From positions 1-64,000 of IMG/VR virus record IMGVR_UViG_3300036770_003135: a stretch of 64,000 nt of DNA; one strand, written 5' to 3'. The notes under the pieces were generated by a model that worked only from the letters and a program-made list of their open reading frames with translations, was not told the DNA's origin and did not search any database. Shown piece after piece: positions 691 to 6,572 of the stretch. The position numbers and the translations under genes are program-made. The stretch comes from a virus. Numbering within the stretch: the first letter of the stretch is position 1; every line of letters starts with the position of its first letter.

Positions 691-960
691 TTATTTTTGT
701 TTTGAGTCCATATATTCTTTCACATAAGCAGAATGTGTGTCTCGCATATTCTGTTCAAGTTTTCTCATTTCATCAATATGTTCTTTTGTAAGTTCAAATA
801 TTCTCATTTCAGATTGCTCGACACCCATTCCAAATGTTGGATGTTGTGGTTCGTTACGTTTTTCGTCTTCTGTTAATTCTCTTGAATTGTTTGTTTTGAA
901 TGTTTCATATGATTCTCTCGCATCCAACATTTCTTTCTTTAATTGTTCTAATTTTTCCAT
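691..960 (-). CDS. Cassette hypothetical protein (89 aa, helical/charged)
   Basis: ORF fills module 678-1009. Confidence 0.7.
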   Translation of the reverse strand: MEKLEQLKKEMLDARESYETFKTNNSRELTEDEKRNEPQHPTFGMGVEQSEMRIFELTKEHIDEMRKLEQNMRDTHSAYVKEYMDSKQK

Positions 961-1006
961 AATTTATATTTTTTTAATAGGTAAAACAAAAATAATACTC
1001 ACTTAT

Positions 1007-1092
1007 AACAAGGTGTATAAGTAATTTTTTTACAAAGGTACGAATAAGTTTTGGTATTTCCAAATAAAAAACTACATATACACCCAACCGTT
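1007..1092. repeat. attC-like hairpin A4 (promoter in loop)
   Basis: AAC-aa-ggtgtataagtaattttt...aaaaactacatatacacc-caacc-GTT. Confidence 0.8.
1033..1064 (-). promoter_or_regulatory. Bacteroidota primary-sigma promoter (-33 TTTG / -7 TAnnTTTG)
   Basis: Minus strand reads TTTG-gaaataccaaaacttattcg (20 nt)-TACCTTTG, an exact consensus with correct spacing. Confidence 0.75.
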
Positions 1093-1100
1093 AGCAGAAA

Positions 1101-1277
1101 TTACCGCCTAAACTTTTTACTTCTATCCTTTGGGTATAGTGCTTTCATTAACTTTTTATGTTCTTTTTCACTTATCTGCGATGTCGGTAACTCTCCGCTA
1201 ACAGCAGGTTTGTGAAATAAACCACTTTCGATTTCTCCGTAAGTTGGTAGTGATTTGAATGTTCTGTTATTCTTCAT
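1101..1277 (-). CDS. 58-aa chimeric cassette protein spanning a GTT junction (MKNNRTFKSLPTYGEIESGLFHKPA-V-SGELPTSQISEKEHKKLMKALYPKDRSKKFRR)
   Basis: Hand translation. ATG lies in the A5 loop after an A-rich leader; the junction GTT is the Val codon; the stop lies in the far arm of module 1090-1202. Confidence 0.6.
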   Translation of the reverse strand: MKNNRTFKSLPTYGEIESGLFHKPAVSGELPTSQISEKEHKKLMKALYPKDRSKKFRR

Positions 1278-3074: not shown

Positions 3075-3923
3075 TTATAAATCTAATTTTAAATTAAAAA
3101 CTTGCGCAATTACATTCATAGGAATTCTAAACTCTTCAAATGTCCCATCCTCTTTCAATAATACGATTATCGCCCCAAAAAGTCCAATATTTTCATATTT
3201 ACTTCCAACCAACATTTTAAACAATAATCTCAAATATAATGGTAGTTGAACATAATAGTGACCCAAAGCATTATTGGGTAACTTATTGAAGGGGTATTTC
3301 ATCGGTTTTGTAAAATGGTTGGATTCAAAGTTTTTAGGTTTATTTGTTTTATAATCAGTTACTATCCAACCTATTTTATTTTTTTCTTCATTTTTTATTA
3401 ACCATAATTTATCTGGTTGTCCTGTATATTTTAATTCTGGATGACCTAAAACAGTTTCCGTATCAAATAAAAGTGCTTTTCTTTCTTTCATAAGATTTAA
3501 AAAGTTAATCCCAGCACTGACCATTCTATCACTCTTTAATATTTGGTCAAAATCACAATCAAAGATTGGTTGTCTAACCTCTTTCTTAATATCAAACATA
3601 TCAAGGGATTTTTGTTCCAATAAAAAGTGGGTTCTACTACCTAAGTTAGTTGAATATGTTCCGGCATCAGACCATTCTTTTAACAATTTTTGTTGTTCTT
3701 CAATATCACCTTTAGCTTTCTTTAATGCAATTTCTTCAGCTGGGAATTCATCATAATAGTTTTTAATTACTTTTGATACTGATTTCCAATCATCTCTAGA
3801 ATTACCATTAAGGTCTAACATAGTGTATTTGTGATGTTCTTCGTCAAACGAAAGTTTTAATTCTTTCCTTTTATCTTCCAAAAAACATTTAATTTCATCT
3901 CTTAATTCAATTAATTCATTCAT
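3075..3923 (-). CDS. PD-(D/E)xK exonuclease (Cas4/lambda-exo-like)
   Basis: SVS...GSRTH, E...GQPD...DYKT, and QLPLY motifs. Confidence 0.8.
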   Translation of the reverse strand: MNELIELRDEIKCFLEDKRKELKLSFDEEHHKYTMLDLNGNSRDDWKSVSKVIKNYYDEFPAEEIALKKAKGDIEEQQKLLKEWSDAGTYSTNLGSRTHFLLEQKSLDMFDIKKEVRQPIFDCDFDQILKSDRMVSAGINFLNLMKERKALLFDTETVLGHPELKYTGQPDKLWLIKNEEKNKIGWIVTDYKTNKPKNFESNHFTKPMKYPFNKLPNNALGHYYVQLPLYLRLLFKMLVGSKYENIGLFGAIIVLLKEDGTFEEFRIPMNVIAQVFNLKLDL

Positions 3924-4477
3924 ATGATTTTATTACTTTTTTTATAATTTTCGTTAGCCCATAGGGGTTGTAAATTAGTATAATGTGATAAACGATAAAC
4001 ATCTTCAATTGTTTGAGCTTGAGATATTGGTATTTTGTGGTCAATATGCCACCCATAAAATCCAAAGTTTTCCCAACTCATCCCATCTTTAAATTGTTGT
4101 TCTAAATACATTTTCAATTCATTTGGGGTACAACCAACAAAATCTATAGTTTTATTCAATGAAGTATTAAAATTCTTACTTTTTAAGAAAAGTTTCAATC
4201 TATTTCTTACAGAAATTTTAATCTTATAAATAAGGTCATTATTTCTACGTTTTGTTTCTCGTAAATTTCTGTTTTTTTTCGTTATATCTTTATTTTTTAA
4301 TTGATAATTGGTTTGTCTTTCAATTTCTTTTTTTTGATTTTTGTAATAAAAATTTTTGTATTCCCCTGACGTACATAAACGACATCGATATCTCAACCCA
4401 TCTTTTGAATATTTATCCTTATTAAATTCACAAAGTGATTTTTCAACCCCACATTTTTTACATACTTTTGTTTCCAT
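3920..4477 (-). CDS. HNH endonuclease with N-terminal Zn finger
   Basis: CKKC...CRLC; WHIDHKIP...HYTNLQPLWANENYKK. Confidence 0.85.
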   Translation of the reverse strand: METKVCKKCGVEKSLCEFNKDKYSKDGLRYRCRLCTSGEYKNFYYKNQKKEIERQTNYQLKNKDITKKNRNLRETKRRNNDLIYKIKISVRNRLKLFLKSKNFNTSLNKTIDFVGCTPNELKMYLEQQFKDGMSWENFGFYGWHIDHKIPISQAQTIEDVYRLSHYTNLQPLWANENYKKSNKII

Positions 4478-4616
4478 TTTTATAGTCTTTGAGTAATTTA
4501 TTTACTAAAGAAGATAAATTAATATGTTGTTGTCGAAAATAGTTTAGTAATTCAGGTTCTAATGCAACTGATACTTTTGTTTTCTTTTCGTTTTCATTTT
4601 TGATTTTTCTTCCCAT
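4458..4616 (-). CDS. Small ribbon-helix-helix-like DNA-binding protein (52 aa)
   Basis: MGRKIKNENEKKTKVSVALEPELLNYFRQQHINLSSLVNKLLKDY...; alternating beta strand followed by two helices; paralog at 6304-6459; missing from the track. Confidence 0.7.
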   Translation of the reverse strand: MGRKIKNENEKKTKVSVALEPELLNYFRQQHINLSSLVNKLLKDYKNGNKSM

Positions 4617-5576: not shown

Positions 5577-6317
5577 TTATTCATCTATATTTTCTAAAAT
5601 TATTTTTTTTCCTTTTTTTAAGTTTTCGATTGCACTTAATGGTCTCAAATTAGTGTAATGCCATAATTCAAATAAACTTTGTTCATCCTTTGCTGAACTT
5701 AATGGAACTATATGGTCAATATGCCATGTTGCCTTACCCCAATTTTCCCAAGTCATCCAACTTTCAAATTGACTTTCGATATATTCTTTTAATCCATTTA
5801 TTGAAGTACCTAATATTTCTTCTAACCTTTTATTTCGTTTTTTCCTTTTTAATGAAATATAAATGTCTGTTCTTAATTTGGTTTTCAATTTGAAGAATAT
5901 ATCTTCTTTTTTCCTTTGAAAAAATCGTTCTTTAGTTCTTTTTAAAATTTTTTCTTTGTTTTTTTCATAATATTCTTTTCTTTTTTTTGATAATTTTTCT
6001 TTATTTTCGTTTTTGTATTTTTTTATATATTCTTTTCTTTTTTCTGGATTTTCTTTCATCCATCTTTTTGTCCTCTCTTTTCGTTTTTCCCTTTCTTTCT
6101 TAATCCTTTCCCTATCCTTCATCAAGTTTTCTTGATGATTTTCATAATATTTTTGACTTCGTTTTTTAGATATTTCTTCACGATTATCTTCAACATATTT
6201 TTTACCAATAGGTTTCCTACATTCCTTACAGATAGTATTGTACCCATCTTTTTGAAATTTATGTTTGTGGAATTCAGTAAATTGTTTTTCAACTTTACAT
6301 ATGTTACATATTTTCAT
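5577..6317 (-). CDS. HNH endonuclease with Zn finger and Lys/Glu-rich helical linker
   Basis: CNIC...CKEC; WHIDHIVP...HYTNLRPLSAIENLKK; ATG 6317 preferred over TTG 6323. Confidence 0.85.
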   Translation of the reverse strand: MKICNICKVEKQFTEFHKHKFQKDGYNTICKECRKPIGKKYVEDNREEISKKRSQKYYENHQENLMKDRERIKKEREKRKERTKRWMKENPEKRKEYIKKYKNENKEKLSKKRKEYYEKNKEKILKRTKERFFQRKKEDIFFKLKTKLRTDIYISLKRKKRNKRLEEILGTSINGLKEYIESQFESWMTWENWGKATWHIDHIVPLSSAKDEQSLFELWHYTNLRPLSAIENLKKGKKIILENIDE

Positions 6318-6459
6318 TATCAAAGTATTCTTTTAATAATTTATTTGTTAGTGACGATAAATTAATATGTTTTTCCCTAATTATTTTTTCAATTTTTGGG
6401 TCAACAGTAATTGACAATCTAATTTTTTTTTCTTCAGTTTTAATTTTTTTTCGTCCCAT
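6304..6459 (-). CDS. Small ribbon-helix-helix-like DNA-binding protein (51 aa)
   Basis: MGRKKIKTEEKKIRLSITVDPKIEKIIREKHINLSSLTNKLLKEYF...; paralog of 4458-4616; missing from the track. Confidence 0.7.
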   Translation of the reverse strand: MGRKKIKTEEKKIRLSITVDPKIEKIIREKHINLSSLTNKLLKEYFDNENM

Positions 6460-6572
6460 ATATAATAAATACATTATTTAGTGTAAAAGTATCATTTTTT
6501 TTTGAAATATTATATAATTTCCATTCACAAAGTTTTCTTACCTAATATATTTATTAAAAACAATTTTGTCAA

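Follow-up and report, generated by a model that had tools for sequence, protein, structure and literature searches.

A portable hairpin of Flavobacteriaceae phages whose loop is a candidate host primary-sigma promoter

Comparison with homologous elements suggests that the hairpin A4 is a portable module of Flavobacteriaceae phages, in which the loop would act as a promoter for the host's primary sigma factor, the stem would insulate or process RNA, and the unit as a whole would be a shared junction for exchange. We give this reading a probability of about 0.62. A4 lies at 1006–1094 on the minus strand of the window, the 64-kb stretch analysed here, which forms the first part of a viral contig of 102,792 bp (29.6% G+C). 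CheckV rates the contig as a 35%-complete linear fragment, and its gene order shows weak synteny with that of complete jumbo phages (~290 kb). Among its products are a baseplate wedge protein, ribonucleotide reductase, DnaB-type helicase, primase, exonuclease and Dam methylase, as well as fibre proteins with YadA-head and SprB repeats. The hairpin array is limited to bases 1–2000 at the contig edge, and the array genes are on the minus strand.

Read on the minus strand, A4 consists of an outer CTAAC box (1094–1090), a GGTTG bulge (1089–1085), a 19-nt 5′ arm (1084–1066), a 34-nt loop (1065–1032), a 20-nt 3′ arm (1031–1012), TT (1011–1010) and an outer GTTA box (1009–1006). An earlier note on this DNA had described nearly the whole loop as TTTG-N20-TACCTTTG, and our reading of the sequence and a pattern search bore this out: on the minus strand the motif runs from 1064 to 1033 and occupies 32 of the 34 loop bases, with the −33 element TTTG at 1061–1064 and the −7 element TACCTTTG, of the form TAHHTTTG, at 1033–1040. 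Primary-sigma promoters of Bacteroidota have TTTG at −33 and TAnnTTTG at −7 (PMC6847099, PMC9723704), and the refined Flavobacterium consensus, TAHHTTTG, specifies T−12, A−11, T−8, T−7, T−6 and G−5 with no G at −10 or −9 (PMC6847099). A4 has all six near-invariant −7 positions, a G at neither −10 nor −9, the −33 TTTG, and AT-rich tracts near −18 and −28. By the G−5 rule for Flavobacterium johnsoniae promoters (PMC6847099), transcription is predicted to start at 1028 on the minus strand, an A in an A-run 5 nt past the G of the −7 box, in agreement with the 1025–1030 expected in the earlier note.

The A4 strand is predicted to fold at −23.7 kcal/mol as RNA and −13.7 kcal/mol as DNA (z = −3.7; 1 of 200 shuffles equally stable). 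Full TTTG/−7 motifs occur nine times on the two strands of the 64-kb window against 4.3 ± 2.0 in shuffles, at least nine being reached in 2 of 100 shuffles. With nine motifs against 4.3 expected, a lone match is unremarkable, and the evidence beyond chance is conservation among homologues; by our own rough estimate, the chance of a full motif in the A4 loop on the correct strand is ~0.002. At A4, the sole Rfam match was to a microRNA and, at 22 bits, fell below the gathering score of 71; we took it as noise. A scan of 1–2300 for sigma-70-type promoters gave 12 matches against 15.5 in shuffles and nothing at the hairpins.

To avoid circular selection, copies of the A4 subtype were gathered by stem sequence alone, in one viral and one metagenome scan with a both-arm filter. 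The matches listed comprise at least 44 distinct copies from viral and metagenome contigs, 85–95% identical. On the sense strand, the −33 TTTG was present in 41 of the 44 listed copies, TAnnTTTG likewise in 41, and the full TTTG-N18-21-TAnnTTTG in 39; on the opposite strand, none of the 44 carried the full motif. The spacer from TTTG to the −7 box measures 20 nt in 43 of the 44 listed copies, and the optimal −33/−7 spacing in Bacteroidota sigma-A promoters is ~19 nt. At the two free −7 bases, CC, TC, CT, AC and TT were observed, with G at 0 of 88 positions in the 44 listed copies, and the sole common loop variant in four metagenomes, 1038 G>A, hits one of these free bases. Non-consensus cells made up 1.4% of motif columns and 10.3% of other loop columns, a difference of about sevenfold (Mann–Whitney p = 0.013, a modest value, computed on 44 related copies, which are non-independent samples). 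Further invariant stretches, AAT at about −30 to −28 and TTAT at about −19 to −16, coincide with the sites of AT-rich motifs in PMC6847099; GGAAAT following TTTG is invariant among the listed copies and absent from the published consensus. That the loop corresponds to the Bacteroidota primary-sigma consensus, as the earlier note had it, agrees with the motif in 39–41 of the 44 listed homologues and with its promoter-like tolerance of change, and this comparison makes the promoter reading of the A4 loop well supported. The whole loop is fairly conserved and contains a family-wide AAACTT, in A4 at 1051–1046 (minus strand) within the promoter spacer; another function could also constrain it.

Beyond the A4 subtype, two stem patterns each matched more than 119 IMG/VR contigs, and a search by stem complementarity yielded 845 elements (731 distinct) in 299 loop clusters. 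The family design, TAAC, GGTTG, stem, loop, stem, TT and GTTA, is kept across the 731 elements while the stems differ. Among these, the sense strand carried the full promoter motif 56 times and the opposite strand 3 times. The motif is confined to three types: 42 of 49 members of the A4 subtype have it, as do 6 of 7 in a second type and part of a third. In the second and third types, the −7 box belongs to the 3′ arm and likewise stands 20 nt from a TTTGG. The full motif is lacking in common subtypes, among them A2 (266–348) and the short A1 (113–158), A3 (635–680) and A7 (1938–1983), all on the minus strand of the window. Counted over all hairpin types, the −7 box appeared 115 times on the sense strand and 91 times on the other, which is unconvincing outside the three subtypes. 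The enrichment of TAnnTTTG that the earlier note anticipated in homologous loops is seen in the A4 subtype and two smaller ones but not in the family overall, and the reading of the loop as a putative promoter applies to the A4 subtype, not to the whole family.

Other loop types hold the start codon and first codons of the downstream gene. Window examples on the minus strand are A5 (1200–1322), with 12-nt arms ~100 nt apart and a loop that holds the start and first codons of a 58-aa ORF, and A6 (~1565–1590), a 5′ arm only, before the ORF at 1530–1321; neither carries the full motif. Of 577 long loops, 366 have AAACTT followed by an A/T-rich stretch on the sense strand, and 67 have it on the opposite strand. 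In 20 of the 27 larger clusters, 60% or more of the members carry it, and it also occurs in the A2 loop of the window. AAACTT may be recognised by a phage sigma factor or by a recombination protein.

The stems themselves indicate which strand folds. At non-Watson–Crick stem positions, G·T on the sense strand outnumbered A·C by 290 to 80, the same count in inner stems gave 554 to 50, and with one representative per cluster it gave 121 to 40 (p = 1e-10). This excess of G·T wobbles implies that selection acts on the sense-strand form of the structure, be it RNA or DNA, and a sense-strand fold suggests a role in read-through transcripts. A scan of 1–2300 for canonical intrinsic terminators was not above shuffles and found none at the hairpins; because the stem is not of that type, an RNA role for it is a guess.

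The earlier note had the motif pointing into downstream cassettes, and an ORF of at least 30 aa indeed begins within 150 nt downstream on the same strand in 50 of the 54 A4-subtype copies listed. These neighbours are diverse, with 36 unrelated families among the 50 downstream ORFs and 27 among 33 upstream ORFs of the listed copies. Among pairs of listed copies, both neighbours are different in 1,196; 20 have only the downstream gene in common, 3 only the upstream gene and 6 both. Homology between copies breaks at the hairpin edges, in the three upstream-sharing pairs right after GTTA. At least 15 leader types stand behind the A4 hairpin type, and the same leaders are also found behind other hairpin types. 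The A4-subtype unit measures ~88 nt, and its carrier genomes range from ~40 kb to nearly 300 kb. By these comparisons, the A4 module is portable between unrelated genes, and in recent exchanges the A4-type hairpin appears mostly to have stayed with its downstream gene. Since the hairpin keeps the downstream gene in 20 pairs and the upstream gene in 3, the promoter looks like the head of the cassette that it would drive rather than the tail of the preceding one.

In the window, the candidate promoter target is an 89-aa ORF (691–960, minus strand) with no Pfam or PHROG family match. Its leader (961–1005, minus strand) includes an imperfect inverted repeat of 1005–984 with 702–678 and a second, weaker −7-like box, TATTTTTG (994–987), 27 nt before the ATG at 960, with no −33 element at the usual distance from that box. 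Leaders of this type are found before different genes and behind several kinds of hairpin. The upstream 58-aa ORF (1101–1277, minus strand) starts in the A5 loop and ends 7 nt before A4. Across the 103-kb fragment, which is mostly long late operons, TAHHTTTG was not enriched upstream of genes (1.1 versus 0.9 per kb), and these counts do not show that the phage relies generally on this promoter type.

Metagenome contigs were compared with the window, and uncovered bins and joints classed as 'between: not known' were never counted as deletions. In four metagenomes, summed contig depth over the hairpins was mostly several-fold, and up to ~20-fold, that of the genes between, with raised stretches at 78–154, 232–385, 617–693, 1002–1078 and 1541–1617. 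Many contigs departed from the reference at hairpin or leader edges, and the hairpins were common to many genomes. A joint from 1025 to 1071, seen in two runs, keeps the A4 stems but not the loop. Elsewhere in the window, 3920–4616 and 5577–6474 (minus strand) are two copies of one gene pair, in which a small ORF that weakly matches CcdA antitoxin (52 and 56 aa) is followed by an endonuclease VII/HNH-like gene (185 and 248 aa); both copies carry the direct repeats D7 and D11.

The host group can be approached through cultured relatives. The hairpin family is present in several copies both in Polaribacter phage P12002L, where they lie in the early region, and in Flavobacterium phage mumin6-1, and this supports a Flavobacteriaceae host. 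In mumin6-1, a free-standing homologue of the A4 loop, TTTG-N19-TATATTTG (81.6% identity over 49 nt), lies immediately behind a family hairpin, with gp011 beginning 28 nt further downstream, and supports both the promoter reading and a Flavobacteriaceae host. The best DNA matches are to Flavobacterium phages, and Shine–Dalgarno motifs are nearly absent before the phage's genes, as expected for a Bacteroidota host. The view that the motif indicates the host phylum is thereby backed independently, if indirectly, by the cultured phages, and also by the SprB repeat and the scarcity of Shine–Dalgarno motifs. The annotated gp012 of mumin6-1, a 35-aa 'hypothetical protein' (L432:507-614), overlaps a family hairpin and the promoter-like sequence and is probably not a gene. 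Bacterial genome contigs were rejected as a guide to the host: 20 of 51 matches had complete elements, all on short MAG contigs with inconsistent labels (Methanolobus, Gammaproteobacteria, Flavobacterium) that are probably mis-binned phage DNA, and the isolate-genome matches had no complete element. The complete relative G001 (288 kb) carries ~11 true elements, none of the promoter subtype.

The mechanism that we propose runs as follows. Host polymerase would start at about 1028 on double-stranded phage DNA. Because the new transcript would include only the 3′ arm, it would form no hairpin; it would provide a ~68-nt leader for the 89-aa gene (960–691) and continue into later cassettes. Where transcription comes in from upstream, the RNA would contain the entire module, which would fold on the sense strand and probably insulate or process that RNA. 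The unit would then combine a stop-or-process signal with a restart signal, a nested counterpart of the promoter early stem-loops (PeSLs) of T4-type phages. Placed between dozens of unrelated small genes, the module would for that reason also be a shared junction for gene exchange.

Two alternatives deny the loop a promoter function. The match could be chance in AT-rich DNA, its persistence reflecting the recent spread of one hairpin copy. The 4.3 full motifs expected per window make such a match easy to come by, and the listed A4-subtype copies are closely related; but non-motif loop columns are ~7 times as variable as motif columns, the full motif favours the sense strand by 56 to 3 across the 731 elements, and the motif, equally spaced, recurs in two further hairpin types. 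We regard this explanation as very improbable. The loop could instead be conserved for a reason other than initiation, as a site for a regulator or recombination protein or as an RNA element, the consensus match being incidental. The strand-specific AAACTT in most long loops (366 versus 67), inside the promoter spacer, would fit such a role, as would the invariant GGAAAT past TTTG, which falls outside the published promoter consensus. Against it, the constraint mirrors the consensus base by base, with TA and TTTG fixed, the free bases never G, and the spacer fixed in length and variable in sequence, and the mumin6-1 homologue is not part of a hairpin and stands as far from a gene as a promoter would. 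We think this unlikely.

Recombination raises a different issue, in which the promoter would be cargo. The earlier note had compared A4 with classical integrons and taken promoters as mobile parts of recombination sites. Mobility of the module is borne out by portability among unrelated genes, but a classical-integron frame is not: the window is a jumbo-phage fragment, its 35%-complete contig gave no match to the tyrosine recombinase family PF00589 or to a Y1 (HUH) transposase, and it is the sense strand that folds. The contrast drawn there with integrons that rely on a Pc outside the array also needs qualifying, since promoters that move within integron arrays have been described before (PMC11014356). 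The integron framing holds only in part. A Xer/IntI-group protein of ~270 aa is encoded at most ~1 kb from hairpin arrays, and in the same orientation, in four related jumbo-phage records (G001, G003, G005 and G006); in one such array, an A4-type hairpin lies one gene upstream of the recombinase gene. The protein scores 151.7 bits against a TIGR02249 cut-off of 265, also falls below the curated XerA cut-off, and its alignment to IntI4 is split at the position of the integron-specific insert, which the enzyme lacks. The complete phages P12002L and mumin6-1 have no Xer/IntI-like recombinase gene. Directly downstream of the recombinase gene in the complete 288-kb relative is a 291-aa sigma-70 family protein (regions 2 and 4; L414:515-1390, minus strand). 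At L412:1120-1190, a lone CATAAC box and non-hairpin sequence separate the last cassette from the recombinase gene; this box may be an insertion-site half at the array's downstream end.

The narrower version of this idea makes A4 the attC of the upstream 58-aa cassette, recombined at G|TT on a folded single strand by a recombinase, with the loop promoter as payload that would read into any cassette newly placed downstream. Its boxes agree with RYYYAAC ... GTTRRRY, being CTAAC ... GTTATAA with GGTTG opposite TT, and the AAC/GTT cores come with an asymmetric unpaired spacer and with variable stems whose pairing is kept across the 299 clusters. Each gene is flanked by the two halves of a 24-nt inverted repeat, which adjoin the cores, a recombinase lies within ~1 kb of arrays in the four relatives, three listed pairs share the upstream gene, differ downstream and break right after GTTA, and the family member in P12002L was predicted as attC (PMC9892861). 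This reading is nevertheless doubtful. No integron integrase stands beside the array in the contig, P12002L or mumin6-1, and the relatives' enzyme is short and below cut-off. In integron attC sites the bottom strand is the recombination substrate, whereas here the stem wobbles, as a proxy for a recombination assay, favour the sense strand. A site placed after its own gene would keep that gene, yet among listed copies 20 pairs keep the downstream gene and 3 the upstream one, and other subtypes supply the downstream start codon. P12002L_attC1 was the sole phage site tested that gave no IntI1 recombinants (PMC9892861), although IntI1 is heterologous and the result hence not decisive. A broader version is one that we take seriously without favouring it: the hairpins may be true site-specific recombination sites of an undescribed integron-like platform of Flavobacteriaceae phages, with a short Xer/IntI-like recombinase, a sense-strand fold, hairpin-headed cassettes and the loop as exchangeable regulatory payload. 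That payload might be a sigma-A promoter in the A4 subtype, a start codon and N-terminus in others and AAACTT in most, the last possibly read by the phage's own sigma factor. On such a platform, one recombination event would move a gene and set when and how it is expressed.

If the loop does fire as a host promoter, phages of a major environmental bacterial group would be exchanging a ready-made expression switch, a ~88-nt unit set before dozens of small genes that would let captured accessory genes be expressed at once by host polymerase. This would extend the PeSL idea, that a regulatory motif can be a shuffling junction, beyond the T4-like phages of Proteobacteria, and would give Flavobacterium genetics a compact natural part that serves as promoter and insulator. 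It also bears on the nature of phage hairpins earlier labelled attC, which may be recombination sites, RNA elements or both.

Among known systems, the closest functional analogue is the PeSL of T4-type phages (PMC2839356, PMC4122927). Like A4, PeSLs are short intergenic sequences that are conserved and pair a host-type early promoter with a stem-loop; both kinds of unit are found among small orphan genes in the plastic parts of large phage genomes, have unrelated flanks and are proposed to serve gene shuffling, which for PeSLs was proposed to proceed by homologous exchange (PMC2839356). The fold, copies and flanks of A4 agree with the general definition of PeSLs (PMC2839356), and A4 lacks their specific form, a sigma-70 promoter beside a G/C-rich terminator in T4-like myoviruses. 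The two share no sequence relationship. PeSL promoters follow the sigma-70 consensus and stand beside a G/C-rich terminator stem, whereas the promoter-like motif of A4 has Bacteroidota −33/−7 elements and is nested in an AT-rich stem-loop that has a bulge and invariant AAC/GTT cores. For PeSLs, experiments have demonstrated the promoter, terminator and mini-circle functions, whereas A4 is known from sequence. The resemblance is one of analogy, not membership.

Promoter-bearing gene-less cassettes of the Vibrio superintegron (Blanco et al. 2024, PMC11014356) resemble A4 as mobile promoters that activate downstream cassettes. They are whole cassettes of bacterial integrons with IntI and carry the promoter outside attC, whereas the A4 candidate lies inside a phage hairpin. 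Single attC sites and attC clusters that lack an integrase have also been described in virulent phages (Qi et al. 2023, PMC9892861), and one such site, P12002L_attC1, is a short member of the A4 hairpin family. Its loop, TCGTTTTAATG, recurs in A1, A3 and A7 of the window, its AAC/GTT cores and imperfect palindrome are attC-like, and it was the one of six tested sites that failed to recombine with IntI1 (PMC9892861). Two IntI1-recombining sites in the primer table of that study, attC1 and attC2 of Pseudoalteromonas phage PH101, whose host is a gammaproteobacterium, have the outer design ATAACG ... CTTGTTAT as in the family. PMC9892861 describes neither the hairpin family nor its loop types nor a promoter; the A4 family differs further in its sense fold and in that the hairpin heads the downstream gene. 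Bacteroidota sigma-A promoters have −7 and −33 elements as in A4, for which placement inside a hairpin loop is unusual. What appears new here is the position of a putative host promoter, within the loop of a hairpin of Bacteroidota phages that is both conserved and portable.
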